Positions 4,788 through 64,000 of a DNA stretch of 64,000 nucleotides are shown piece by piece; within the stretch, counting starts at the first letter, position 1; every line of letters starts with the position of its first letter. The translations under genes were made by a program, and so were the position numbers. The stretch spans positions 1,798,001 to 1,862,000 of the forward strand of contig JAYWIR010000003.1 of the NCBI GenBank assembly GCA_036172245.1, in the 5' to 3' direction. The stretch comes from Raillietiella orientalis (taxonomy: Eukaryota). Under the pieces are notes generated by a model. The model saw only the letters and a list, made by a program, of their open reading frames with translations. It had not been told where the DNA came from and ran no database searches.

Positions 4788-6059
4788 CTATTTTGAATCT
4801 TGGCCTGGATAAATGCCAGCTTGTTCAGATGGTACAATGACTGGTGCTAACTCATCAGATTCAGAAGAAAGGTCCCACTTGAATTTTTTGACTAAATATT
4901 GCTTAAATCTGGATGCTTTTGAACGCAATTTTGGATCTAGATTTGGACGAGTTTCAATATTGCTGAAGAATTCCTGTAAAACAGCTGAGAGAAATGTAGT
5001 ACTTGAAGGCACTATGCCTAGAGCATCTTCAGGGGCTTCATGAATTTGCCAATGTATTGAGCTGATGAAATCACTGAAAAGTTGAGGGTAATGTTCTAAG
5101 GCCTCATCGCAAGTGCAGAATAGCTGCATTAGACGCTTCCATTGCTCAAGTCCTTCAGCAACTTGTCCAATGAGGAAGCAAACAAATGAAAACTGCAATT
5201 CCCCCACCAATTCACCAGAACTAAAATTACAATAAATAAAAGGTTATTGCGATTTAAGTCTTGTTACCTGCGTCCATCTCCTAACATTTGCTGTAAAGTG
5301 TAAGTTGAATCAATACTGTGCAAAGTAATTTCCCCTGGAGTGGATCCTGGAGGGTAGCGACAACGAGGAAAGCGAGTAAATCGGATTTCTGTGCCATCAA
5401 TAGGCTTCATCCGAGGTAAATTTTTCTCAGCATCTTGTAAACATGCAGGAACTTCACCCACAGATCTATGGGATACCCCTGATTGAAACTGGTCTATGGG
5501 GACCATTTGGGGAGCAGAATATATCTTGCTTCCTGAGGGCTGGAGTCTCTCTAACAGTGGTTCTAGGATAATTGTTGCATTAGAAATCTAGACATCAGAT
5601 GGTTACCAGTTATCTGAGATGTAAGTGCCACCCATTTTTTCCATGTTTCAAATGGATAAGGTCCCAGAAACCGATCTATTTCTTTCAAATTTTGTTGAAA
5701 GCATTCTACTTCTTTGGGGCTGACAGCATCGCTACTAATATCTTCTTTGACTTTATCCCATTTTTTCACTAGAATTTCCCTTCTTTTAAAAATGTGAAAA
5801 AATCCCATACGTGGAGCTATTCCACCTTGTTCATTACAAGAGCTAAAATTACGACCTTAACATGTAAAAAAATCAAGACCAATGCTGCTTACCTATAAAA
5901 AATAAAGTGCAATCCTGGTGGAATCATTTTAACACCTTTGAACTTTTCACCTATAATCCATGAATTCATGTCAATACCAAATTCAGTTCCTAAAGGGACA
6001 TCCAAAAATATAAAAAAGGCTCCTTCGTTAAAAAGGTTTTTGGCCAATTCGGGATCCAT
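4788..6059 (-). CDS. AAR2: AAR2 homolog, U5 snRNP assembly factor (376 aa); exons 5893-6059, 5607-5842, 5268-5562, 4788-5220
   Basis: N-terminus [34 protein letters not shown]...[16 protein letters not shown], then [15 protein letters not shown] and [14 protein letters not shown]...EQWKRL..LFC. Three GT-AG introns (50, 44, 47 bp) with phases that sum to an intact 1131-nt frame. Confidence 0.95.
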
Positions 6060-12170: not shown

Positions 12171-12828
12171 CGGAGGGAAGGGAAAGGACGGGGTTCTGCC
12201 GGAGCAGACCCAGGAGGTAGAGATCAGAAGCGCGCATGCGCGTAGAGGAGGAAAATTCCTTCTATGCGAAGGCAGCAAACGCCATCCCTCCGCTGAGAGC
12301 AAGGGCAGCCCGCATCCTGAGGAAGACCCGCCGCCTGAGACTCGAATTTCGGGTGAAAGTGGGGGAATAATCCCGACACGAAATGCTCAAGGGGTCTCCT
12401 TCCTCACTCTCCTTTCTGTGGGGTTCCTCCCCCCCCCCCCTGGAGCTGCCGGGGACTATCTGACTCTCACCTCACGTCGTTCGCCTGGGTGGATGGGTCC
12501 ATACCTTCTCCCTCAATCGCCGCTTCTCTAGACCCAATGGAGCTCATTCTCTCGCAAAAGGGAAGGAGGGAGGTCGACCAGTGACATGCTCCTCATTCAC
12601 ACCCCTCCGGCGTAGAGAGGGACGGTCCTCCTTGACTGGCAGCGCGAAAGATCTCCTTCTGGAATGCCTTTCGCCACAGGCACCCCTTCTGGCAGCCATT
12701 TTTCGGCTGGACACCTCCAGTCCTTTCGCCCTACTGCGGCCATGCGGGCGTCTCCTGGGAAACTCAACCCAATGCTCCCCTGTTGCCTCCGGCTCCTTCG
12801 CCTTCAGGAGGAGGGGCTGCTCCTGGTC

Positions 12829-12867
12829 CGTTCCAATTTTAGTATATGTACAGCCGAAGAGTGTACA
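12829..12867 (-). pseudogene. U6: 3'-truncated U6 snRNA retrocopy (U6 nt ~1-38) with 13-bp TSD
   Basis: Minus strand reads GTACACTCTTCGGCTGTACATATACTAAAATTGGAACG, i.e. the U6 5' stem-loop plus the conserved ACATATACTAAAATTGGAACG. Flanked by the perfect direct repeat TGCTCCTGGTCCG at 12818-12830 and 12868-12880. Confidence 0.9.
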
Positions 12868-12959
12868 TGCTCCTGGTCCGGGGGAGATGCGGAGGACCAC
12901 CCTTAATTCCGCTCCGAGCTCCTTCCAGGAAGTGGACTCGTCTCCGGTAGAGGCAGCGG

Positions 12960-16329: not shown

Positions 16330-17852
16330 ATGCCAGCTTGTGGATTGCTTCAAAGTGTTTTGAGGAAAAGACTTTGCCCATGCCCACTTGAATCTTATGC
16401 TGATGGTGTCCCAGCATTGCTCAATAGACATTGTGAACAATTAGTTCATGTACTCCATGAATCTATAGAGCACAAAGAAAGTACTTCTATTCTGTTAATT
16501 GGACCTCAGGGTTCTGGAAAAACATCGGTCAGTTGGACGGATAAGGGAATGTGCATAGAGAAACTGTTAAGGTAGCTAATGAAGCCATACGCAGATTACA
16601 AAAATCTGGAAACAAATTTGCTCTGGTACGTCTGTGTGGTTTCTTGCAAAATGATCAGCAGTCTGCTCTTCGTGAAATCATTCAGCAATTACGTTTAACA
16701 GTGGATGAAGAATTTCTGTCAGGAACTTTTACTGCTGGTAAGCAGCATGATGAAATTTTTGGTGGATATTATTCAAAATCACATTCTAGATCGTCTTCGG
16801 GATCTCTTTGCCACTTTTCAAAAAGAACATTCTAACTGGGAGCATTCAGTAGTGATAATACTGGAAGAATTTGATCTTTTTGCCCAGTTTCATCATCAAG
16901 CATTATTATATAATCTCTTAGATGTTGCTCATTCTCCAGGTTCTGCGCTTTGCCTTGTTGGCTTGACATGCCGCTTAGATGTTGTGGAAATGTTAGAAAA
17001 AAGAGTCAAATCACGCTTTTCTCATTTACAGTTGTTCCTTCTGTCTGATCTCAACTTTGATGAATACACTGCTGTCTTCATACAACTTTTGACAGTGCCT
17101 GAACTGCCAGGTCTCTCAGATGATGTATTAAAAGCATGGAATTCAAGAGTCAAAGGGTTTTTAAATGTGCCTTCTATTCATGATGGCTTGCAACGTTTAT
17201 ATTTTCAAAGAAAAGATATCCATGCTCTCAAACGGTTTCTTGTAAGGTGTCTTGAGTTCTGAATAATGTTTTAGTTTTTGCATGCAGTTTCCTGTCATCT
17301 GCAAATTATCAGAAGAATACCCATTTCTTGAGAATTCCGATTTTGCTTCAGCCCTGAGGGATTTGACAGTCGATAATTATCAACTTTTATTACAAGGATT
17401 ATCAGTGCTTCAATTGTGCTTGGTATGTTGCACAGTGATTCAGAATCTGATTCTCTTGGTTAGTTAATAGCAATGAAACACCTAAGTGTTACTTATAAAG
17501 GTGCACCATTTACTTTGGAGCAACTTTTGCAAGAATATGAACATTTCTGTGCACGGCATCCTTCAGTACAAAAGTTTGATTCACCTGTTGTGCACAAAGC
17601 ATTTGAAAGTCTGTTGGTATGTTTTATATTTATATCTGTATGATTGTATTAGTCTTGCAGCATAAGTCTTGTGTTAATATCCTGATTTTGTAGGAATTGG
17701 AAATTGTGTGCTCAACAAAACCACAGGAGCATCTCCTGCCTTTTCAGCGTTATGAATTGTTACTAGTCCCACAGCAGATTGAGATGGCTTTATGTTCATA
17801 TCCTGAATTGCCAACTGATTTGCAACAATGGATCCGGAATCAGGATGTTTGA
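16330..17852 (+). CDS. ORC4: Origin recognition complex subunit 4 (420 aa); exons 16330-16527, 16572-16737, 16790-17241, 17288-17422, 17464-17616, 17694-17852
   Basis: ESTSILLIGPQGSGKT (Walker A), IILEEFDLFA...QALLYNLLD (Walker B), GLTCRLDVVEMLEKRVKSRFSH, GLSVLQLCLLIAMKHL and C-terminal PTDLQQW. Five GT-AG introns (44, 52, 46, 41, 77 bp) give an intact 1263-nt frame. Confidence 0.96.
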
Positions 17853-22500: not shown

Positions 22501-23321
22501 CCACCCGGTCGACTTTTTGCGCCACGAAGATTGTGAGGCAGCTCAAGCCAAGAAACAGATGCGTCAATCGTGGCTGCTGCAAAGAGGGACCCGCCTCGGG
22601 AGGATCGCATGACTCGGTACGAGTGAGCATCACCCAAAGTGAGCCATGCGCGCGATGGGCAGACGAGGCAGCCGAGTCCGGCAAGCGTGAAGTCTTTGAT
22701 TTCAGCCATCACCGGTTGCTATGGATGCAGACGATTATCACGGCTATGACCAAAATTCCGACAGAACAGTTACGACGGAACAAGGAATTCGGAGGATGCG
22801 AAAGCGAAAAAAACCTCTGTTTGCGATTCTTGTGGTCCGCCTCGGGGTGCTGATGACAACTAAAGCAACTATACGGACTTTGGGGGGTGCGCATGTGGCG
22901 CTTCCAGGCGCACCTTGCCTTGTGTGTCTCCGTGGATACGTGAAGAGCCTGCTTCACTCTGAACAACAGACAAAACAAAACAGACTCAGAAGGTACGGGC
23001 ACTACATCAGTTTTCCTTTCGATCCGCCGAACTTGCGGCCTCCCCCGCTGCTGCCCCGTGGCGCGCTGCTAAAAACCACGCATGCAGTTCCTCAAGAATC
23101 AAAAGAGTTCCTGGTCCATGTCCTGCTCTGTCGATAATTTGTCAGCTCTCCCCCTTTAGAACCATCTCAGTTGAGCTCTTTAGAAAGTTCAGGCAACAGT
23201 CCCCTCCATGCTGGCCATCGTGAACCTTTTTGCGAATGGCGCAGCACTCTCCGCTTTGGCCGCACTTCATTTCCACTCGGAAGTGAACTTCATGGTGTTG
23301 CTTTTACGAAAGCATCGGGCT

Positions 23322-23348
23322 GTACACTCTTTGGCTGTCCATATACTA
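23322..23348 (+). pseudogene. U6: 3'-truncated U6 snRNA retrocopy (nt ~1-27) with degenerate TSD
   Basis: GTACACTCTTTGGCTGTCCATATACTA has 2 mismatches to the copy at 12.85 kb. Flanks ATCGGGCTGT (23314) and ATCGGCAGT (23348) look like a decayed TSD. Confidence 0.7.
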
Positions 23349-23599
23349 TCGGCAGTGTTTCCTTTCGAACGCGTAACCGGCCTTCTCCTTTCATGGCTAT
23401 GACACCTTTCTTAGAACATTTTCCTGGGCAGTTCTTCCGTGGTTACTCCGTGCAGTATGATACCAATTTTGGGCTGCTGAAAATCATTTCCTTCATTTAT
23501 CTTTAGAATTAAAAATAACTCCGGGAGCTTCTGCCTTCTGGCTCTAACACTGTTCCACGCCGCCCGCGGAGGGTGCGTGTAATTCTTCAAGATATGGGG

Positions 23600-31700: not shown

Positions 31701-32905
31701 AGTGAAAACACTGTCGTGCCTACGGATATGATTTACGCGCGAGCTTCGGGAGATGCAGATTCAATGATGCTCGCACAAAGACGCAGCGCTCACACAGGGA
31801 TGGCAGATGTGGGATACTTGACGAGGACAAGGGAGGCGAATCTTCCAGTTCGTTTTCGAGCGGTCTCTGTACAACACGCTTAATGGATAATGCACAAAGT
31901 TACGTATAAGCAATACACGCCCGGAAAGGTGACCCGCAATCGACCGTCCAGCGCGTGTCCACTTGGAACTTTCCGCAGATGCGAGGGAACGCACTGCATC
32001 GTGGCGCAGTCCTTGAAAGTCGTGAGTGAAAAATGAGACAGATGGGTCCATGGCATCACTGCGTTCCCTAGGAAGCGGCAGCTTCGCTGCTTAATGGGGT
32101 GGGGCATACATGACACACGGCGCGGCCGCAATCCGCTCAGTACTTGCTGCTGTGGGCGGCGGGTGGGCGTGATTCGCGGCACGGGTGAACTGCGAAACGC
32201 AGGAAGAGGTGGTTCGCGCGGGCGCGCGAAGGCCCTGTCGAAAGCCAACGAGGAAAAGCGGCATGGAGTCGTCGTCTTGCGGCCGTTTCGTCGACACCAA
32301 CGCTTCCTGCACCACCCCCGTGGCGCGTCACGGAACGCTCAAACCCTCCCTCCGTTCACCCAGTAGGCTGCGAGCACCACTGACCCGGCAGTAGCACGGC
32401 AGGTGTGACCGACTCCGGGACAGTCAAAAAAAAAAAACAGAAAGCACAGTCGACCTCCGTACAACACGGGGAACGCGATCCGCGCGTTATACGAGCCCTG
32501 TGGATAATCCATGCACGCATGCACGAAAGATAAAAAGTGTGCCTTAATCAGTAGAATATTTGTTATTTCACTCTGAAGCAAAGGGGGGGGGGGGGAAGCT
32601 AAAACGTGTCTGTCTGTTGTTTAACTCGAAGCAAAAAAAAAGCATTAAAAATTTTGCAGATGAAACAATCCTGCAGTTTCAGCCAACGTTGAAACGCGGA
32701 AATCCACGGAAAATCCACAAAAATCTCAGTAAATTCAGCCTGCTTAGATCATGCGTCGACATTCTTTCTAAAAACAGCTGACCCGGCACTGCACCGCAAA
32801 ATTCAAATTTACCCACAGCGCCGCTGCCGCGCCACGGGACTGACGGGGCCACACGGGTGGGATGACGCTTTTTCCGTCGCCGCGCTGTACGAACGGCCGA
32901 CCCGC

Positions 32906-33062
32906 GCCACACACAGGTCCGCCGCTCTGTACGAACCCGCGCCACACGCGAGTCCGCCGCTCTGTACGAACCCGCGCCACACGCGAGTCCGCCGCTCTGT
33001 ACGAACCCGCGCCACACGCGAGTCCGCCGCTCTGTACGAACCTGCGCCACACGCGAGTCCGC
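32906..33062 (+). repeat. 35-bp minisatellite, ~4.5 copies, in lin-28 intron 3
   Basis: Unit GCCACACGCGAGTCCGCCGCTCTGTACGAACCCGC at 32906, 32941, 32976, 33011 and a partial copy at 33046. Confidence 0.95.
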
Positions 33063-34989
33063 TGCGCTTGGGAAAACGCGTACGCTCGACGGACGCGGGG
33101 TCAAGAAAACAGCTGCCCGAAACTTACTGGTCAGTCCGTTGTCTTTATCAAGTACGAAAATACAGGTACGATTTACGGATATGTATATAACGGGCGCTTA
33201 AAACATCGCGACATTCGCAGCGGTGCAGATTCGCGTACTACGAAAGGCTCTGGCAGAACACCCCGAAAAAACGCGGTGCGCAAGGGAGCGTCCCCAAAAC
33301 ACGTCAGGGCGCGCCGAGTTGCGCCGATGGTGCAAAAGAGTCGGAGTTCCATTGGGGGAAGCTTCTGGAAACTCCCTTGGTCACGCGATCAACTCCGGTG
33401 GACAGCGCTGTGTCCACTAGTGGGGACGCGCGCGAGCGTTCCTTCCGTCTGCACCGAGAAGAAGGTTCAAGAAGTGCCCCAAGAGGAAGAAGCAGTCCCC
33501 CCCGGTTCCCGCCGAGCAGGGCGAACTCTTCCCGGGAGGCAGCGCGCAAACGCCACGCACATCACCCGCGCGTATCACGGGAGCTGCTGCACGACTCCGC
33601 TGCGCCCGCTCGCTCGCGGGGAAATCCCGACTCCCCCAACCAACTCTTGCGGATGGGCGGAAGGACCAGCGTTCCGCGTCGCGGACGCAACCCGAGACCG
33701 CCGACCCCGCCAACGGGGACGGGAATGCGTTTCCGGTGACGTTTCCAAGTACGCAGTAGCTAGCCTGCTCCCGGAGACGATCCGGGAGACGGTGGGCGGG
33801 AAGCCGTCCCTAAGCGAAGGCACCGCTCGCGTGCAGGGATCGATCACCCCCGATTCCACGCAGAACGGTCCGACTGTCCCACGAGAGGAGGGCGCGGACG
33901 AGTGTAGGGGATCACCCACTCCACGGGCTCCCCCCAGCGCTTTTTCCGGGCGCCCGTCCCAGCGGAGGCTTCTCAAGGCTGCAGGCAGCTTGCGGGACGC
34001 GAGGCGGAAGGGAAAGCTGCAGCCGAGAGAACGCGCGCGCGCGCCGAGGAGCGAAATGATTCGGGCAGCGGACGCATGGATCGGGTTGCCGGGCAACAAC
34101 CCACCACAACGCAGGTGCAACAGGAAGAGCAACGGCGATTCTTTCGAGGAAACGCTTGCTGGAGAGAGAACGATCGGTGGCGCGATCCTGGACACGAAAA
34201 CACACACAACACGCCCCATTTCGGGGGGTTCCAAGTTTTTTTTTTTTTTCCCCCTCCTGAATCATCTGCATCGCGGGAGGGAACACGTACCGAGGTTGTT
34301 TCCTCACGACTGCCCCTTATCTCTCGCTCCGGGCTTTAGAAGGGCTCATCTTTCTATTTATGCTCCTTTCAAGCAGCTCGTGTTCTCTACGGGAAGTCCG
34401 TCCCGCGCGTGCGCACAGGGCCTTCCCTCCTCGTTCACGGAATCCCTTCTCCTGACGTCAGAACGCATCTCCCGCCCGCCCACGTGCTCCCCGTCGGTGA
34501 CACCGGTTACGGAATCTACCACTGCCGACCTTGCGCTCCGGCTACGAGGTGGGAAGCTGCGAAGCAACGAGAATCAGCGCCATAAGCGCGTCCCGGAAAA
34601 TCACTTTCCCGCTGCACGAGCGGCGAGGCTGCGGGCGGCACTGCTCCCACGACCCACGACCTGCGGGCGAGGTGGCACACCCGACGGCCTTCGCAGGACA
34701 CGACGATCCGAACGCGAGGGAACTGACGTCGAGGAAGGTCATCGACCCCGCACGACCGGCGACGGGCGCGGCGACTCCGGGACGCGTTTCCTGCGGCCCC
34801 GCCCTGGGGAGTCGCCCCCTCCCGGGAATCGCAAGCGGCTGGTCCCTGGGTGCGCGAAAAGGCCTCGGCAGGCTACCACCCGGTCTCTGACGTCTCCAGC
34901 TCTTCGGGCGGAGGGGCGGCGCAGACCACCTCGCCCGCGCGTCTTCCGCGCGCGCGCGCACGCCCTCTCCCACGACCGGCAGGGAACGT

Positions 34990-36030
34990 TAATGTGTTGT
35001 TAATATGTGTATATCAAAGATTATAAACAAGGAATACACGTTTGTTATATATGTATTAGTATACAGATTAATATACAAAATAGCATACATATTTATTAAT
35101 ATTTATTAACATACATACATATTGCTATAATTAATAATGTCTATTAATATGTTATTAATACCTATGTATAGTAAATATGATGAAAACAAAATGTGCGTGT
35201 ATTATTTATATACATATATTAGTGTATATGTTTATATAGTCATGAATATACAAAATAGCTCTCATATTTATTAATATTTATCGAGATAATTACTAATGTG
35301 TATTAACATGCTATTAATATACGTACAATGAAGATTATAGAAAAGGAATATACGCTTATTATACATGTTAGTATACATATTTATGTATACATTAATATGA
35401 TGAATTTATGTATGTTTATGGATTACGAATATTATAAAAATATAAGTACATGTGCTCATTATGGATGTTTATACATGATTAACATGCAAACTTACTTTAA
35501 CGTACATATCTATTATTTCTTAGATTCTATCTTAAGATAGATATTATTCATATAATCAATGGTTTTAATATATATATTATATTTATAATATATGTATACA
35601 TATTATAAAAAAAGGAATGTACGTTTACTACATATATATTAGTGTACGTGCAATATGAAGACTGTAAAAAATAAATATAATTTTTTATCGTTTGATATTT
35701 GTATATTCATCTAATACGTATTAACTGTATATACACATGTACATTCACATACCCGTATATACACATTCACATATAATAGGCATACATATTTATTTGTTAT
35801 AATACATATATTAATAATACTTATCCATATGTATTCTTAATTATATTGATATGCATGCTCACATTATTCTATAAATAAATATGTACATTCACATACGTAA
35901 TAAGCACGTTATCTATTTACTGTAATCTTTAATATATATATATATATATATATATAGATGTTAATTGATGTATAATAATATACATACTATACTAAAGACA
36001 CGAATTTATTTATGACCTTTTGGTATTTGG
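34990..36030. repeat. AT-rich degenerate satellite island (~160-175 bp period) with (TA)n
   Basis: Recurring AAGGAATA(C/T)ACGTTT..TATATATGTATTAGT motif near 35025, 35185, 35341 and 35608. AATATACAAAATAGC...CATATTTATTAATATTTAT occurs at ~35070 and ~35245. Sharp boundaries against GC-rich flanks. Confidence 0.7.
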
Positions 36031-37179
36031 ACCGGCAGTGCGTGATCGTACACACCCATCATACGCCTGTGACACTCCTTGCATCTCCTCTCCTGGAAGA
36101 GCGGCTCCTCTGCGCTGCCCTTCGTTAATGTGCCGCCTCCTTGCGGGGCCTTCCGCAGCCCTTGAGGGGCGCGGCGGCCGCCCCCCGCTCCACACCCCTG
36201 CTCACCGCTCCGATGCGGGTCGGCCGCACCGCAACGTGCTGGCGAAGATTCGCCGGTTTCCCTCCAAGTGCCCCCTCCTCCACGCCCTTTCCGAAGGGCT
36301 CAGCAGCCACGCGCGCGCTCGCAGGGTTGGTCCCCTCCCCCCCTTCCCCCCCCCCCCTCAGCGGCCATCAGAGGCAGCAGCAGCTGCCTGCCACCTCTTC
36401 GCCGGTCGCCTTGGAAGCGGCAGCTGCACGCGGGCCCTGCCCGGAGCTGAGCTTTCGTTCGTCACCTGCTGTGTCCAGGGTTGCCAACATCCCGATCGTC
36501 CCCGCGTACGAGGCGGCGCCGAGCGGACGGTAGGGGCCAACTCGCCTCTCGGCGACGTCGACGGTCGACACCTCCCGTTTCGCAACTGACAAGGACCGCG
36601 GGACATTGGACGCGCCCCCCCGGCGCCCCCGTGCCCTGAACACCTCCCCGCCTTCGCGCCGCGTGCAACGGAGGGGACGGATCTCGGCATGGCAGGTGCC
36701 CTTGCCGTGAGCGACTCTCTTCCACGGATGAACGCGCGCGATGGGAGACGCGGGCCCGCCTGCTTGCAGCCTCCGGTTGCCGGGGAAACCAGCCAACCGA
36801 GGGTCTCGCGGACGTCGTCCGGGTTTCGGGAGCGACCTCGACCCGTGGCAGCGGCCGCCAGCGCGTAGTCGGTGCGGGGTGCCCGCCGGCGGCCAGGGTC
36901 CTTCCAGACGGATCGCTTGGTACGGAAGCTGCGGCTACCTGCATCCCCTGCGCCCGTGTGGCGGCGAGTCGGGGCGGGAAGAGGCCAGCGGTCGGCTCTG
37001 GACTTTGCTCTCTCCCAGAGCTGCACGGCTCGTTCACCTAACGTCGGCCACGCCCTCTGCCCGCGCGACGAAGCGCTCGGACGATCACACGGGCCTCCTC
37101 CTCCCTCCGCGGTCGGAAGTGACCGGCGAGGCGCGTCCACTTCCGGCGCCGCGGACACGGGCGGAAGCGCCCTCCTCAC

Positions 37180-37352
37180 CTGATCTTGCGAAATCTCTTC
37201 TTGGACAGGGGTCTTCTGTGGGAACCCTTGCAGTTCACGTTGTTGGGGCCGGTCACCCTGGTGGCCTCCAGGCCTTTGTCCGACTCCTTGCATTCGAATT
37301 CCACCTCTTCGTCGTCGCCCAGGCTACGGAAGCCGCTCATCTGGATGACACT
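37180..37352 (-). CDS. lin-28: lin-28 exon (cold-shock domain C-terminal half and linker)
   Basis: ttccag|SVIQMSGFRSLGDDEEVEFECKESDKGLEATRVTGPNNVNCKGSHRRPLSKKRFRKI(R)|gtgagg. Confidence 0.96.
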
Positions 37353-38068
37353 CTGGAAACGCAGCCCGGATGACAAAGGAGCGGCAGAACGGGACGCGGC
37401 CGGTCTGCCTTCCCTACAGACCTCGGGAGTCCGCTCTTGTCCCCTCCCTCCCTCTCCGACCCGGCGAGGGGGGCGTCGCGAGGCGACGGCGACACGGACC
37501 ACCGGCTCGAGCCAGTGCAGCCGGTGCGCTTCGGAGACCCTGGACGATGCTCAAGCGCGCACGGCCAGACTGCCCGGGGAACGACTTCTCCCACGCATCG
37601 CAGGGAGTTCCCCCTCCCCTCCCTTCTCTCTCCAGGTCTCCCAGCTCTGCGGGGAAGGCGCGGCTGCGAGCTTCCGGATGAAACTCTCTGGACCCGCGAT
37701 GTGGGACGGCTGGGGAGTCCCCCCGGGGTGGGGCAGGACGCGTCCTTCGAGAGCCTCCCGGTTCCCGACTGTCGTTCCATCTGCTCCTCCGCGGCTCATG
37801 GGACGGGGGTGGTAGAATCGGGGTGGGGGCACAGAGGTCAGAGGTCAGAAAGCGCTGAAACGGATACGGTAGTGTTGACGGTGGAGAAGGGAGGAGCCTG
37901 CGGTGTTGTCATGGTGACGGGGCAAAGCCAAGGTTTCCCTCTGCTTCCTTCGCTTTTTTCTCTTCCCTTCCCGGCCCCTTCCAGGGGCCTTCCCCGGGGA
38001 GAAGGGGGAAGAGTGGGTCCCCGTCCCTCGCCAGGCGCGCGCTCCCGGGGGCTCCTCCCGCGCCTCAC

Positions 38069-38220
38069 CTGGTGCACGAAGACCTCCTGGCCGCCGTCGT
38101 CCGGGGTGATGAAGCCCCACCCTTTGGCCACGTTGAACCACTTGCACCTGCCCTTCTTCCTGGTGGAGTGGCCCTGCGGCGCGCTTGCACCGACGGCGGT
38201 CTTCTGCGGGGGGGGTAGAC
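38069..38220 (-). CDS. lin-28: lin-28 exon (cold-shock domain N-terminal half, RNP1/RNP2)
   Basis: atcatag|...[31 protein letters not shown]|gtgagg; phase-1 acceptor, phase-0 donor. Confidence 0.95.
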
Positions 38221-40420
38221 CTATGATTCCGGGAGACAAAGAGCATCAGCGGCGGCGGGTGCAAGCCGGGTGGGGGCGGCGGCTTCCGGGGAGAGAGGCC
38301 TCGGTGGAGGAGGCGGTGCGCAGGCGCGGAACGCCGCCACCCGGACGGCCGTCTCTGCGCGGCCTCGTCCGCGATTGGACCGCCGCCGGTCCTTCTGCCC
38401 GCCCGCTCCTCTCCCTCCCTCCCTTTTTTGCCTTTTTTTTCCCTTTTTTGTTCCCCCCTTCCGTTCTCTCCCGATCTCCACCCCTCTCTCTCTCATTTTT
38501 CCCCCCCTTCCCCCTTCTTTTATTATTTTTTTTTCCCCCATTTCTCCTACGCTCTATCTCCCCGCCTTCCCGCGGGACGCCTAAAAAGCGGCGCTCTCTC
38601 GCCGGCTCCGGGACGGCCGCCCGCTGATTGGCCGCGGCGCGCGCAGGCGCCTGGCTCCCCCTCTGCTGTGGGAGTGGCCGCTCCTCGCATGTCGCTCCCG
38701 CGCCTGCGTCCCTGCGGGGGCTGCCGACCCTCCTTCCTTGCCCAAAGGAGGGAGAGGGGCAAGGAGGGAGGATGGGAACCTCTGCGCGCGACGACGTTGC
38801 TCTGCAACGGAGGAGGGGGCGAGGAAGGCGGCGCGCACAAGAGGGTCGCGCACTACCCGGAGCTCTCCGCTGGAGAGAGGTGCGGCTGGCTCTCGCTCTC
38901 CCGCTGGCGGTCACTATGGAGACCGGGAAAGCAGGAAGGGATACTGCTGCTGGTGGCGACCGGCTGCGGCCGCGTCCCTCGCCGGCGGCCCCGGCGATCG
39001 ATCGCCCGGCGGCGCGGCAGCTTCTCTCCCAGCGCGCGCAGCATCCGCAGCCGCCCTCGCCTCCTCGGAGGAGCAGGAAAAATCGATACCCCCGCCGTGG
39101 GCGTCCAACGCGCGCTTCTCGCTCCCCTCCCCTTCCCCCTCCCCCTTCCTCCATGGCGACCGGCGGCTACTTGGCGCGAGAGGGGTCGCGGCTCAAGGGC
39201 GTCAGTTGTCTCCGGAGTGGCTGATCCCCGTCGGGGCGCGCGCACCGGAAAAGCGTCGTATCCGGTGTTGCCGAGACCACGTTCCCTATCCGTGCGTTCC
39301 AACGGGCTCACGGAGGCCTGCGAGGCGATGCCCAGTGCTGCGGGGACGCGTGCCCGGCGGTCAGCAGCTCCCGCCTCTGCCTCCTTGGAGGACCGAGGGG
39401 GCAGGGCTCGACCGTGCACCGCAGGACACGTGTCCCGCGGGAAGGGCGGTGAGCTCCCCTCCCGCTCTCAGGGTGTGTGCGCGAGAGAGGAAGAGGCAGG
39501 CTTCTGGCACCCCTGCAAGCCAGGCTGAGGAGGATCAGGGGCTGCCCGCGCGACCCTCGTGGACCTCTCGGGACATCCGGAGGACTCCGCCGCTCCAGTC
39601 GCCGGCTGTGCTGCCGTGCGGCCGGCGCGGTGTCGCCCTGGAAACGGAGGGAAGCAAGGGGGGCCCCTATGCGCCCGTGGGAGTCCTCGAGAGTCGGAGG
39701 ATCCTCTTCTTTCAGCAAAGCGGCCTTGGCCGGCCGAGACACCCTGAGTCCTGTGTCCCTACACGAGCTGCGCGGGTCCGGGAGGTCAGCCACGGGCTGG
39801 AGGATACGCACTTCGTTGCCGGGACGCTCGCGGCGGCGAGGTCAAAACCGCCGGATGCTGCCGTACCCTTCTTCAGCAACACCACAATCCGCTTCCTGGG
39901 CAGGGCTTGGCCGTAGCTCGCGGGTCAGCCGACGGGCCGCGCTGCTTCCCTCTCTCTCGCTGATCCGCGCATAAGCACTCGAGACGGGTCGACAGCGCGC
40001 GCGACTGTCGGACCCGGGCGCAGGGAGGTTCGATGCACCTGATGGCATTGCTCTTCCCCGGAGAGCGCCTCCAAGGCGTCCGGACGACACAGCTTCGGCT
40101 CCTCCCGACTACTCCGGGAAAGCGCCGGCGGCGTCTCGCTGGGAGGTGCGAGGGCGCGGTGCTTCGCCCTAGAGAAAGGGCGTCCGTCGCCCCTGGCGGT
40201 CTGCGGTCGTCTTCAAAACGGCGGAGGCGGGAATCGGGGGGGAGGGTGATGAGGCTAGAGGAGCCCGCGAAGGGCAAGAAAAATCCCGTGTGCGTGCAGC
40301 GGGAGTGGATGTAGGGCGGATATCGTTGCGAGTGCCCTTGAGCCCGACTGCACATGTTCGTCTGCCCCTATCCACTGTCGTTTCCTTCGCGCAAGGGAGC
40401 AATCCATTTTTCCTGAAGGG

Positions 40421-49499: not shown

Positions 49500-51420
49500 G
49501 GGGGACCGAGGAAGGGATCACCGCTCGCTGCGTGGCGTCCTCTGCATCCTACCCAGGACAGTGCTGGCAAGTTCGGTCTTTATGTTGCCTGGATTTCGTG
49601 GAGGTCTTCAGGAAGATCCGCGTTCAGTAGATGGCGTTCCTGCCATCTCGGCCTTTTCTTCCCGCGTTCCTGGCCGCCGTGATCCCGAGGAGACAGCAGC
49701 AAGAGCACTGCGAGAGACGTGGCTGGCCACAGTGAGGCAACGCTCACGAAGAGGCGTCTGAAAATTTCCCTGGCCTACCTAGGATCGTCGCGAGGCGACT
49801 CCAAAGGGGTCGGAGGGCAGGGCAGTTCAACAGCAGGTGCGGGAGGGTCTCGTCCTCCCCACACCTGTCCCACTCAGCGCCCACCCTCCCTCGTGTCCAG
49901 TGGTGAAGGCGCGCTTCTCACGGGATTCCCCCATGCAACACCAGCAACGCCGACTCCCTCCACTTGAAGGGGAGCGTCGCTGTTCCACTCTGGGGGCCAC
50001 TTCACCTCTTCCGGAAGAATGTCGAGCAACTCTCCCCAGCGCTGGAATCCTTGGGGGTGGGACACTCTGGATCGCAGCTTCCGTGATCTCCCGAGTTGCC
50101 CACGAGACCAGAAGTTTCCTTTTGGCTGCAGTACAGCACGTCACTTCCCGCCTTGCTGGGATGAGCTGCTCCTTCCTTCCCTAAAGGAGGGCAGCACTGA
50201 GGCAGCAAGGATAGGCGAAGTGCGCAGCATCTTCCGCGGGTCGCACACGATCTCCCTTAGCAACTGTCGAGAGTTACTTCCTCGTCGCAGGCATGCTCAC
50301 TACGCCTCGCTCGAGCCGCGGATCTTTCTCCATGACTCCTGCAGCTAGGCAGTGCAGTTCGCGAGGAAGGCAGGAGATCCAGACTGTCCTCCTCCAAGGC
50401 AACCATCTTCCAAAGTTGATGGCCACGATGCCTCAAACTCGCCCCGTTGGCAACACGATGTGAGGTCCTGACGGCCGGCTGCTCGCTGGCGCGCGCCAAG
50501 GCGTGGTCCGTAACTTCGCCGCGAGGGCGAGTCTTCTGAGTTGGAGCTGGCACTCTCCATCCGCTCCAGAGTAAGGAGGAGGGCCCAGCTCACCATCCCT
50601 ACGCGTTTTGCTTTCCATTGGACGGAGCAACATTTGGCAATCCTAGCGTCCCGGAACATCTCCCTTTGTTTCTGCGCAGCCTGGGTCTCCCGTGGCAGCC
50701 TCAGTCGGCACCCACCGCCTTCGCGAGCGAAGAAGACCAGCGAGCCGATCCCAGAATTGCCGGCAGCAACTGCTCCAGCACTCTTTCCGCAACAGCCTGC
50801 TCTCTCCAGGAGGCCGTCGAACATCCTACCACTTGCGTGCCTGGGAGGAAGGAACCTCCTCCCCTTGCACTGCGGAGCTGCCCTCCCTGAGGGAGGAGCG
50901 CATTGGCGGATCTAAGTGGAGGACTCTCGGTGGTTGGACCACGGATCAGTGAGTAACTCTGAGATCCCCGAGTGCTGGACCGTTTCCCATCCCAGTCATT
51001 CAACGGGGGCATTCGGTTTCCGGTTTCCACCAGTGCCGAAATGTGTTGCCCTCCAGCCCCTTTGGGGACGCTTGGCCACGACTCTTGGGGCCCCGGGCGG
51101 CAACGCCAGAGACGTTTTGAAGCGCCTCTTCTTGCGCGACGCCCTCACGCCGGCCGCATCCCCAGCAGCACTTTGCTGCCCACGCGACGGTATGGAGCAG
51201 TGGCTGTATGGAGCAGCGTCAGAGGAGGCCAGGACGACAGGGACGCCATCTACTTTGCTGCCCTCTTCATGAGGACAGCGTCAAGATGGCTCCATCTGGG
51301 AGTCTTGAAATACGAACTTGCAAGCATCCTTACAAGGATTCAGAGGACACCTTCCAGCACACAGCGATCCCTTCCTGAGCGCCCCCATTTTTTGACTGTA
51401 TGTCTTTTGTGTTAGTTTTT
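49500..51420 (+). mobile_element. Degenerate, apparently internally deleted L1/Tx1-like element (endonuclease-like region joined to C-terminus)
   Basis: Decayed APE-like stretch ending 'GGAHWRI', followed directly by 'KCVALQPLWGRLATTL...NARDVLKRLF...AALCC', homologous to 'DCGVLQGLWRRLASAL...TARILIRRFF...ATICC'. No RT motifs lie in between. Confidence 0.55.
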
Positions 51421-51727
51421 TTTCTTTTGTTTGTCTCCCCTTCTCCTGTGCTGCCGAGGCGAACCCCGCTGGCCTGCGTGCCAGTTGCCGAGAGGTTCCT
51501 TCTCGTAGTTACAAGTAACGTGGCAGGATCAAACGTCCTGACACAGACGGTTATTTTTTATAGATAAACGCCCCGGCGTGACCGGTTGTCAACCAGTGCC
51601 GCACCTGAATAGTGCAACCGGCGTCATCATGCGGGAGGAGGGACTCGAAACCCATCGCGCAGACCCGATTTCTAGGTGTCGATCTTTCCCCCACCGGGCG
51701 AGATCCGAACCCACGACGCTTGGTACC
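51096..51727 (+). repeat. Left arm of 632-bp near-perfect inverted repeat
   Basis: Reverse complement of 58967-59598, with about 7 mismatches by eye. Confidence 0.95.
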
Positions 51728-58929: not shown

Positions 58930-59143
58930 AGCAGACCTGGCCAGCGCTGCAGTCGTCTGCCTACGTGGTACCAAGCGTCGCGGGTTCGGATCTCGCCCGG
59001 GGGGGGAAAGATCGACACCTAGAAATCGGGTCTGCGCGATGGGTTTCGAGTCCCTCCTCCCGCAAGATGACGCCGGTTGCACTATTCAGGTGCGGCACTG
59101 GTTGACAACCGGTCACGCCGGGGCGTTTATCTATAAAAAATAA
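58930..59143 (+). mobile_element. tRNA-headed SINE-like copy with A-rich tail
   Basis: CGTCTGCCTACG...GTCGCGGGTTCGGATC resembles the anticodon and T-arm of tRNA-Arg(ACG). The body is homologous to 24230-24310 (rev) and ends TATAAAAAATAA. Confidence 0.6.
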
Positions 59144-59598
59144 CCGTCTGTGTCAGGACGTTTGATCCTGCCACGTTACTTGTAACTACGAGAAGGAACC
59201 TCTCGGCAACTGGCACGCAGGCCAGCGGGGTTCGCCTCGGCAGCACAGGAGAAGGGGAGACAAACAAAAGAAAAAAAACTAACACAAAAGACATACAGTC
59301 AAAAAATGGGGGCGCTCAGGAAGGGATTGCTGTGTGCTGGAAGGTGTCCTCTGAATCCTTGTAAGGATGCTTGCAAGTTCGTATTTCAAGACTCCCAGAT
59401 GGAGCCATCTTGACGCTGTCCTCATGAAGAGGGCAGCAAAGTAGATGGCGTCCCTGTCGTCCTGGCCTCCTCTGACGCTGCTCCATACAGCCACTGCTCC
59501 ATACCGTCGCGTGGGCAGCAAAGTGCTGCTGGGGATGCGGCCGGCGTGAGGGCGTCGCGCAAGAAGAGGAGCTTTTAAACGTCTCTGGCGTTGCCGCC
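58967..59598 (-). repeat. Right arm of 632-bp near-perfect inverted repeat
   Basis: Reverse complement of 51096-51727. Confidence 0.95.
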
Positions 59599-60900
59599 GG
59601 GGATGAGCAGGGACCCGACAACGCGTCCCGAAAGGGACCGAAGGGCAGCGTAGTCCACTAGGAGGTGCTGGAGGGATTCTCACTCCCCTCACTTTGCACA
59701 GTTCGGGTACAGCCCCTTCCTCCCTGTCCAATGATGCCTGCGGGCGTTGCACGGGAGACCCCAGTGCAGCAACAGCAGCAGCGCCAGCTCCTGCCACTTT
59801 AAGGGGAGGATGCAGGTATTCATGAGCACCGGGGGCCACTGTAGGCCTTTCTCCGGAATACCCAGTAGCACGCTCCAGCGCAAAAGTACCACGAGGTCGA
59901 GTAATCGGGGTCAGCATCGGTGGGCTGGTCCGTCGTCCGCTCACCCAGTCCTTTTCTCCTTCCGGAGATTTGCACAGTAACTTCCCATCTAGCCGCAAGG
60001 CTTCTGCCCATGTGTGCGGCACTGGTGCAAGTCTGAAACCCCCGGATGCACCCTGGGGTTTCCGACTATTGAGTGGCCGGGATTTGGAAGCTGATCATCC
60101 GGGCTCCTTCCTGGAATCAAGGAGCCCTTTGGTTGTGAAAATGGAGCCGTACCATGGAGGATGGTTAATACACTCCTCGAGGGGGGTTGCTTCTCCCTTC
60201 GAGAGCGACCTTTCAGAGAAAATTTCGGTGTTCTCTTCAGAGCAGTTGCTGTCTCTTCTCCTCTGGAGGAGTGCACCCTATAATTGTAAGGGCGATTGCC
60301 GTTGGTTCTCCGGATGTTGAGGTAACTGAGGTATTTCCAGGACGCAGGCGTAAGACAGAAAAGTGGCAGAGCTCTGGAACATCCAGAGTTCCCGAGAAAA
60401 GACGTGTGCTGGGAGCACCTGGTGGGACTGTACAAGAATTTCATTCACGTACAAGGATTTGAACGAATAGGGCGCGGATGGTTCGCTCGCTCCACGGACA
60501 GAGGGCAGAAAAGAAGTCAATACAAAGGGAAACTCTGATCTAACAAAGCAGCGTCCAGTTGTAGAAACAAGGAGGCTCCCGGTGCGGTTCGGGCAGTAGG
60601 TCCAGCCAGTGGGCGTTGGCAAGATGGTTCCAGGCCGCCTAATGGGGAATATCCGATGCCGTGTATGCACCGCCACGGAGAGCCGGGAAGCGAAGGGATT
60701 AGACCGCATGGAGGAGGAAATCGAGCTTTGTTTTTCCTTCATTGCCGGTCGGGGGTGATTTGTCAGGATGCTTTCTTCCGGGGTTTGTGCATCCCCAGCT
60801 GTGAGACACGAAGACAAGCGTGCACTCTTGCACATCGATAAGCGACGCATTCTGATATCCTCTGGTGAGACGAGGCATTACAGTGGAACACGGAAGAGTG
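59279..60900 (-). mobile_element. Degenerate, apparently internally deleted L1/Tx1-like element (APE endonuclease remnants plus C-terminus)
   Basis: 'LIDVQECTL' (LQET-like), 'GRCFV' and 'FLGNSGC' (GDFN-like) are followed by 'LLHWGLPCNARRHHW...PNCAK', homologous to 'LVHWGFHCNQR...PNCAR'. Confidence 0.55.
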
Positions 60901-62399: not shown

Positions 62400-64000
62400 C
62401 TAGACTGCAGATTGAAAAGTCGCCGAAGAACTGCTCTTCCTAAACGATTCGGACGGGAAAAAAGAGAGAGGGAGAGAGAGAAAAGAGATCCCCGCACCTC
62501 GCTGCGCTGAAGAATTGTTTTCGTTCCCAGAAAAAATGCAAGACATCGATCTTTCTTCCCCGAGGGAGTACCGACGCGCACTTATTCTCAGGGTGTGCAG
62601 CGAAAAAGTCCAGTCCAAAGCCTTCGGTCCCCCGAGAGATCGAACACAATTCACGCATGAGCTGATTTCGAAATGTGGCAGGGGTATGGTCCACTGGGGG
62701 GTCGGATTGGTCGACGTAAATTTCGCGAAGACAAATCAGTCCGGATAGCTCTGCTTCAGCATATCTTCAAGTGCCAGGATCACGGAAGAAACCTTCAGAT
62801 GACACAAGCCGCAAAATCGGATGCAGCGTGCTGGAGGAGAACAGGACTAGAATTCCTTCTTGTCTTGCGTTTTGCTCAGTGGAGGAGTAGTCAGCGGAAT
62901 GGATGCCCACGGAAGGACATTCGCTGCCGTCCACAAATGAGATAAATTTCGGAGCATGCACTTGCGCCGATTCCTCGAGTACCAATTGCTATCATAAACG
63001 CACTCCTCTGAGACCATTTAAGTTGTAAACACAATAAAAGGAAACGTCCCTCCATATCCTCCCAGGGAGAGTTTAGCACTCTGAGGGCAATGGCGAAGGC
63101 CAAATTCCTTTTCCCAAAGTTCCCGCAGTGCCACGCATAGATGTTCTCTTTTGGAGGAGGTGGGGGAGTTTACGCGGCGATCCCTCTGCACACGGCACGC
63201 GTGTCTGCGCAGACGACCGTGCGTTTCTTACAAACGGGGGGTGTGCGCTTTCAGTTTTAGTATATGTACAGCCGAAACGTGTACGCTTTCAGTGGCAGCG
63301 GTTGCATGCGCTCCCCGCATACGGAGGCATCGCCTCCAACGGAAGATTCGCACTTTGGTGGCACCATCCGATTCCACGGCACTCATGGCCCCGCGTTGCT
63401 GAAAGTCCTGCTTTCCTAGTCCTTGCGGCATTCGGTTTCACTCGAATTTTGGGGTGCGCAGCAACAAATCATCATCCTCGGACAGCGATCCGGAGAACCC
63501 GTCAGTTGGTCCACCAATGCCGTGAGGAGTTAGCTGACTTTCGGTCACTTTCAGGATCTAGTGTTCCTGTTTTCCACGGGAGCAGATGCCACCACCATAC
63601 GTGATTTTTCTCCGATCCCTGTCAGACCCTGCGACACGCGTCGTCGCCATGGATACCGTTAAAGCGCGACTGCTTGTCGGCAGTCTCTCCCCGAAGGCAA
63701 CGGCCAATGGGCAAAAGCTTTCTCCACATTTCCCCTCCTTTTTTCCCGCGAGTGTTCCCGATTCCGGGATGAACAGAATTCTGCGGTGGCCATGTATGAC
63801 AAATCGAGAGTCAAAGAGCAAATGTGGAATCAGAACATAGCAGGAAATCTGTCCACACGCGTCCACGCGCAAAGTGGATGTGTTTCATCTCAGACAGTCG
63901 GTTCACCGTTCGGCCGCCCCATCTCAGTGCGTACTCACAGAGAAGATGAGGCGTCTTCTCGAATCACCGAAATGATTTTTGATCCCATTTCATGGCTCTC
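62400..64000 (-). mobile_element. Probable degenerate LINE fragment (endonuclease end to RT start)
   Basis: 'SRGTEGFGLDFF' resembles the SPGPDG...EF motif preceding RT. Upstream 'LRVD' and 'IHGHRRI' resemble the RID and SDH motifs. Highly decayed. Confidence 0.35.
63255..63284 (-). pseudogene. U6: 3'-truncated U6 snRNA retrocopy (nt ~1-30) with 10-bp TSD
   Basis: Minus strand reads GTACACGTTTCGGCTGTACATATACTAAAA. The perfect direct repeat CGCTTTCAGT lies at 63246-63255 and 63284-63293. Confidence 0.85.

Follow-up and report, generated by a model that had tools for sequence, protein, structure and literature searches.

Truncated U6 copies in the window

Three short pieces of the 5' end of U6 RNA lie within the window, i.e. 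the whole 64-kb stretch of DNA that was analysed, and these are probably tailless, 3'-truncated U6 retropseudogenes generated by target-primed reverse transcription. All three begin at U6 +1, two of them (copies 1 and 2) with one extra T in front, and their 3' ends fall at different points, nt 36-38, 27 and 29-30 in copies 1 to 3, respectively, in agreement with the approximate values of 38, 27 and 30 given in the first-pass annotation of this DNA. The Rfam consensus structure shows no pairing at any of these end points, and folds of the copies pair the 5' hairpin only. None of the three carries a poly(A) or A-rich tail, in keeping with their initial description as tailless, and the U6 bases are instead directly adjoined by a duplication or by flanking DNA.

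Copy 1 is a 37-bp insert at 12831-12867 on the minus strand, identified from the Rfam U6 model, its fold and its alignment with full-length U6, and reads TGTACACTCTTCGGCTGTACATATACTAAAATTGGAA on that strand, i.e. one extra T followed by U6 nt 1-36. It includes a 5' hairpin of the form TGTACA...TGTACA and closes with TATACTAAAATTGGAA. On the plus strand the order is TGCTCCTGGTCCG at 12818-12830, the insert, and TGCTCCTGGTCCG again at 12868-12880, and the letters of the window thus bear out the original claim of a 37-bp tailless U6 insert standing exactly between perfect 13-bp repeats. The right-hand repeat begins with CG on the minus strand, and these first two bases are also the next bases of U6 (nt 37-38), a 2-nt junction microhomology contributed by the target, as had been proposed. 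When the 64-kb window was searched with the Rfam U6 model (RF00026), the segment 12829-12866 (minus strand) aligned with model positions 1-36 of 105 at 18.2 bits (E 6.5), and a local search of 141 nt gave 22.4 bits (E 7.6e-4) over the same model positions.

Two further copies were recovered by a word search and by blastn-short. The word TTCGGCTGTACATATACTA, with up to three mismatches allowed, occurs three times in the 64-kb window as against 0.00 times expected from 100 shuffles, which rules out a chance match, and blastn-short with the insert returned the same three sites (E 7e-18, 1e-7 and 1.5e-6), the next match in the window having an E value of 1.4. Copy 2 (23321-23348, plus strand) consists of an extra T and U6 nt 1-27; it shows two substitutions relative to copy 1 (TTCGG to TTTGG and GTAC to GTCC), is probably older, and gave no match in an Rfam search at the site. 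Copy 3 (63255-63284, minus strand), which was also detected with Rfam, consists of U6 nt 1-30 and has CGT in the hairpin loop where copy 1 has CTC; in a local search it aligned with positions 1-34 of the Rfam U6 model at 17.9 bits (E 0.017).

Identity of the pieces as U6 and their 5' ends

The assignment of the inserts to the 5' end of U6, originally made from the letters of the window, was upheld when they were aligned with complete U6 genes found in metagenome contigs. A scan of these contigs with the 24-mer GCTGTACATATACTAAAATTGGAA returned five loci, all of them full-length U6 genes from other organisms (114.5-116.2 bits) in which GCTGTACATATACTAAAATTGGAACG is identical; loci L001 and L005 share flanks, such that the five loci represent four distinct genes, and all lie in AT-rich flanks unlike the 64-kb window. 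Alignment A1 shows agreement between the window copies and these genes that begins at +1 and extends across the GTAC...GTAC hairpin and ATATACTAAAATTGGAACG, such that this unusual hairpin is a true variant of U6. The same 24-mer had no matches in genome contigs, and no truncated copies were found elsewhere in either the metagenome or the genome contigs, nor did a degenerate 27-mer derived from the three copies have any exact match in either set. Since no Rfam family reached its gathering score in the 64-kb window, there is no full-length U6 gene inside it. Among the metagenome loci, contig L003 (1-824) is a small RNA polymerase III gene cluster, with genes for 5S rRNA and U6 and two more for tRNAs packed into 824 bp.

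A start at U6 +1 in all three copies is expected of a polymerase running off the end of an RNA, and is unexpected for random DNA fragments. The extra T is less straightforward, given that a T stands at -1 not only in copies 1 and 2 but also in all five metagenome U6 loci (four distinct genes), and a DNA-templated source or one started upstream would be compatible with this. The T before +1 could be an untemplated addition, could come from a transcript started one base early, or could reflect copying of the gene DNA. Reverse transcriptases are themselves known to leave an extra base at the 5' junction by untemplated addition. If the pieces were copied as DNA from about position -1 of a U6 gene, by template switching in replication or repair, the T present in two of the three copies would be accounted for, and if the U6 genes of the species itself have T at -1, then the T of the copies would have been templated by the gene and not by RNA. 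However, copying from DNA has no reason to keep the left boundary at -1 or +1, the transcript start, in three of three copies, and it leaves the flanking duplications unexplained, which together make this origin highly improbable.

Flanking duplications, junctions and independence

The repeats flanking each piece were compared with 20,000 random positions per copy. A repeat of at least 13 bp, as at copy 1, was reached at 3 of the 20,000 positions, and one of at least 10 bp, as at copy 3, at 47. The copy 3 repeat is CGCTTTCAGT (10 bp, plus strand), present at 63246-63255 and again at 63284-63293, where it was retrieved from the direct-repeat list with a spacer of 28 nt, and the outer bases of the insert (U6 nt 1 and 30) overlap the two repeats. 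Copy 2 has a possible short duplication, ATCGG, at 23314-23318 on the left and 23348-23352 on the right, the A of the right-hand ATCGG overlapping U6 A27 and the bases G and C together with the extra T lying between the left-hand ATCGG and U6 +1; a repeat of at least 5 bp was, however, reached at 856 of 20,000 random positions. On these counts chance does not account for the duplications flanking copies 1 and 3, whereas the one at copy 2, matched at about 4% of random sites, is weak. The first-pass annotation had credited all three events with target-site duplications, and this holds for copies 1 (13 bp) and 3 (10 bp), copy 2 having the weak 5-bp candidate only.

At the 3' junctions, the perfect overlap between the target and the end of the U6 segment amounts to 2, 1 and 1 nt in copies 1 to 3, three cases being all that the window offers. 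At copy 3 the target sequence ACTGAAA agrees with the U6 sequence ATTGGAA at 5 of 7 positions, and the Rfam alignment continues into the repeat. On the other side of the same copy (63236-63300, minus strand), the target past the duplication reads GCACAC and matches the U6 5' end, GTACAC, at 5 of 6 bases, a likeness that may represent microhomology guiding the 5' junction.

Self-BLAST of the window returned 11 repeat pairs, none of them at the three U6 sites, and no alignment was obtained between the flanks of the three copies, which have nothing in common beyond the U6 part. Unrelated flanks of this kind indicate three separate insertions, as was initially claimed, and with no repeat pair at the sites they rule out segmental duplication of a single insertion. 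It is scarcely credible, for related reasons, that the pieces are the ends of a longer element, whether a U6-headed short interspersed element (SINE) or a U6-targeting transposon with some of its flank, or products of segmental duplication. Both snRNA-headed SINEs and U6-targeting DNA transposons do exist, as described in the available text of PMC4494074 and PMC8869645, but at copies 1 and 3 the duplications adjoin the U6 homology directly and leave no room for a body or tail, and the flanks of the three copies are unlike each other and unlike the rest of the window. The end of a SINE or transposon is further contradicted by the absence of any common body or LINE-like tail among the copies.

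Searches for comparable inserts in the window yielded no additional examples. Among 25 AT-rich islands in GC-rich DNA, a flanking repeat of at least 8 bp was present at copy 1 only, and the 68 pairs of direct repeats of at least 10 bp in the window (56 of them not low-complexity) enclosed no further recognisable small-RNA piece.

Composition and gene content of the window

The window is a mosaic of two kinds of DNA. Between 1 and 8 kb and between 14 and 21 kb, GC content is 30-40% and the gene bodies (AAR2 and ORC4) have observed/expected CpG ratios of 0.21-0.41. Between 8 and 14 kb and between 21 and 64 kb, GC content is 45-71% and the CpG ratio mostly 0.7-1.4, except at about 35-36 kb, where GC content drops to 20% in a single island. 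In its base composition this mosaic looks like invertebrate-type gene-body methylation beside very GC-rich unmethylated domains. Each of the three U6 pieces falls within a GC-rich, CpG-rich block, although such blocks make up approximately three-quarters of the window and the placement of three pieces within them is therefore not significant alone.

The only Pfam matches in the scanned open reading frames (ORFs) were AAR2, ORC4_C and a cold-shock domain. AAR2 is spread over three ORFs at 4788-5856 (minus strand) with introns of about 50 nt, and its exon has protein matches at 38-41% only, while ORC4_C lies at 16699-17262 (plus strand), the best match of its exon being to amphioxus at 48% identity, followed by molluscs and fishes at about 40-45%. 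The ORC4 match and the mosaic CpG depletion both agree with the invertebrate host suggested in the first-pass annotation, none of the proteins compared belonging to a close relative. The cold-shock domain is encoded by an intron-split gene at 37179-38245 (minus strand) in DNA of 66-69% GC, with the intron following ...VFVHQ and the sequence resuming as GFRSL...VEF...RVTGP, a gene that we take to resemble Lin28.

Several other repeats were observed in the window. Two inverted copies of a 681-bp sequence, 96% identical to each other (51047-51727 and 58967-59647), enclose about 7.2 kb of GC-rich DNA with no Pfam match and have no obvious flanking duplication. A tandem array at 32885-33070, taken from the direct-repeat list, is built from the 35-bp GC-rich unit GTCCGCCGCTCTGTACGAACCCGCGCCACACGCGA. 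The 20%-GC island (35000-36000) is TA/TG-rich, of low complexity and set within a domain of 60-70% GC, and gave weak, chance microRNA matches in Rfam. In the AT-rich part, a 79-bp inverted repeat at 92% identity (737-815 and 1652-1730, about 840 bp apart) possibly marks the ends of a small MITE-like element.

A possible mechanism and the choice of target sites

Under target-primed reverse transcription, the reverse transcriptase and endonuclease of a retroelement, one not seen in the window, would nick one DNA strand, and the freed 3'-OH would anneal by one or two perfect bases to the single-stranded, A-rich stretch that follows the 5' hairpin of U6 (nt 27-38). At copy 1 the putative primer for the first-strand cDNA would be the 3' end of the left TGCTCCTGGTCCG copy (12818-12830), and at copy 3 the proposed annealing would be imperfect, with 5 of 7 bases paired. 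The enzyme would then copy the RNA to its exact 5' end, at times adding one extra base, and subsequent nicking of the opposite strand at a distance of 5-13 bp, followed by fill-in, would leave the flanking duplication. Abundant nuclear U6 RNA would in this way act as a repeated source of products of 28-37 bp.

The predicted first-strand nicks are TCCG^GGGG, CAGT^GGCA and CGAT^GCTT for copies 1 to 3, with G after the nick in all three. These putative sites are GC-rich, none is T/A-rich, and none resembles an L1-type site (TTTT/A or TT/WAAAA). A G after the nick and a GC-rich setting speak against an L1-type endonuclease, although three sites give no more than a hint of this. The ORFs of at least 70 aa in the window were also scanned for Pfam domains, the scan covering the 370 ORFs shorter than 150 aa in full and, among the 102 longer ones (at least 150 aa), 70, with the remaining 32 overlapping scanned ORFs; these 440 of 472 ORFs contained no match to a reverse transcriptase, endonuclease or transposase. 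The local L1/Tx1-like family originally invoked as the source of the copies is thus not borne out, there being no reverse transcriptase or endonuclease match in the ORFs scanned and the predicted nicks not being L1-like.

These same observations bear on a different origin, in which chromosome breaks were filled using U6 RNA (or a stable 5' piece bearing the cap) as template for a repair polymerase or for a stray reverse transcriptase, and no retroelement endonuclease had a part in selecting the site. Target sites that are GC-rich rather than L1-like would fit such an origin, as would the absence of any LINE among the scanned ORFs of the window, and inserts of 28-37 bp with microhomologies of 1-2 nt resemble templated insertions. 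The location of all three copies in GC-rich blocks with CpG ratios near 1 could likewise reflect open or break-prone chromatin. Against this, the perfect 13-bp and 10-bp duplications require staggered cuts with long 5' overhangs, and ordinary breaks give none. Endonuclease-independent L1 insertions and end-joining fillers are usually without duplications and often show deletion of target bases. Filling of breaks is accordingly judged unlikely, and target-primed reverse transcription is retained as the probable origin of the three copies.

Comparison with known systems

The known counterpart of these pieces is the class of tailless snRNA retropseudogenes made by LINE-1 in therian mammals (the Denison and Weiner class; Schmitz 2004; Doucet 2015, PMC4476161; Noll 2015, PMC5322556, from which the term tailless retropseudogenes is taken). 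In the counts given by PMC4476161, 166 of 256 characterised human snRNA copies are 3'-truncated and 145 of these 166, including 12 of 12 for U6, have target-site duplications. According to the text available of PMC4476161 and PMC5322556, truncation in the human copies occurs in single-stranded, purine-rich segments, and at the 3' junction target and RNA are complementary, over 2-18 nt in mammals. The statement in the first-pass annotation that 3'-truncated snRNA copies flanked by duplications are a signature of internal priming by LINE-1 in mammals agrees with these two accounts.

The window copies share with the therian class an intact RNA 5' end, truncation in a single-stranded A- or purine-rich stretch, the absence of poly(A), duplications of variable length and inert products, and possibly also a short stretch at the 3' junction over which the target is complementary to the RNA. 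They differ in several respects. The host here is of invertebrate type, whereas in the text available of PMC5322556 the process is traced to the therian L1; the predicted nicks are GC-rich, in contrast to TT/WAAAA or TTTT/A (the target being given as TT/WAAAAWW in PMC5322556), and no LINE was found in the window; and the copies are only 28-37 bp long. Their density also differs, with three per 64 kb here as compared to the 906 U6 matches of at least 90% identity that PMC4476161 (Table 1) counts across the entire human genome. Overall, the event appears to be of a known kind, a tailless snRNA retropseudogene, and what is unusual is the host, the shortness of the products, the density and the GC-rich, non-L1 target sites.

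Other systems resemble the copies less closely. U6/LINE-1 chimeric retrogenes, formed by template switch or RtcB ligation (PMC6789731, PMC4476161), likewise contain U6 sequence reverse-transcribed by a LINE enzyme and set between duplications, but they join a full-length U6 to a 5'-truncated L1 3' end with poly(A), whereas here U6 stops at nt 27-38 and the duplication comes next. SINEU elements, which are snRNA-headed SINEs, are similarly short and interspersed and start with the 5' part of an snRNA; in the account of PMC4494074, however, they have a body, a LINE-derived tail and their own promoter, whereas the present pieces end at the duplication after 27-36 nt. Filler insertions from break repair, such as those of Pol theta end joining or RNA-templated repair, also comprise tens of bases with junction microhomology, but neither target duplications of 10-13 bp nor the exact start of the same RNA three times over is expected of them, and both are seen here. 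No report of retrocopies of U6 5' fragments in invertebrates was found in the literature outside subscription journals, and a 25-mer of the copy 1 insert had no occurrence in the text of that same literature.

Implications

The U6 pieces are promoter-less and without a LINE tail, and are most likely inert, dead-on-arrival by-products incapable of spreading by themselves, for which reason the designation of a U6-derived mobile class made in the first-pass annotation is not adopted here. A more far-reaching possibility, on the whole doubtful, is that copies of the capped U6 5' hairpin, 25-40 bp in length, number in the thousands to tens of thousands in this genome and were made by a non-L1 enzyme (that of another LINE clade, a Penelope-like element or RNA-templated repair) that primes in the A-rich linker and prefers GC-rich, unmethylated DNA. 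If the window is typical, there would be thousands of copies genome-wide, an extrapolation from one window, and if three per 64 kb holds throughout the genome, inserts of this size (28-37 bp) would make a sizeable contribution to insertional mutation.

Such pieces escape repeat maskers and Rfam gathering thresholds, with none called in the window, and would serve as presence/absence markers. Tailless retropseudogenes are treated, in the text available of PMC5322556, as a hallmark of the relaxed therian LINE-1. Clear invertebrate-type cases at non-L1 sites would mean that another reverse transcriptase is able to start inside a host RNA that has no tail. The more far-reaching possibility, if true, would add an abundant class of micro-retrocopies lying below standard repeat annotation and would extend tailless retroposition beyond therian mammals.
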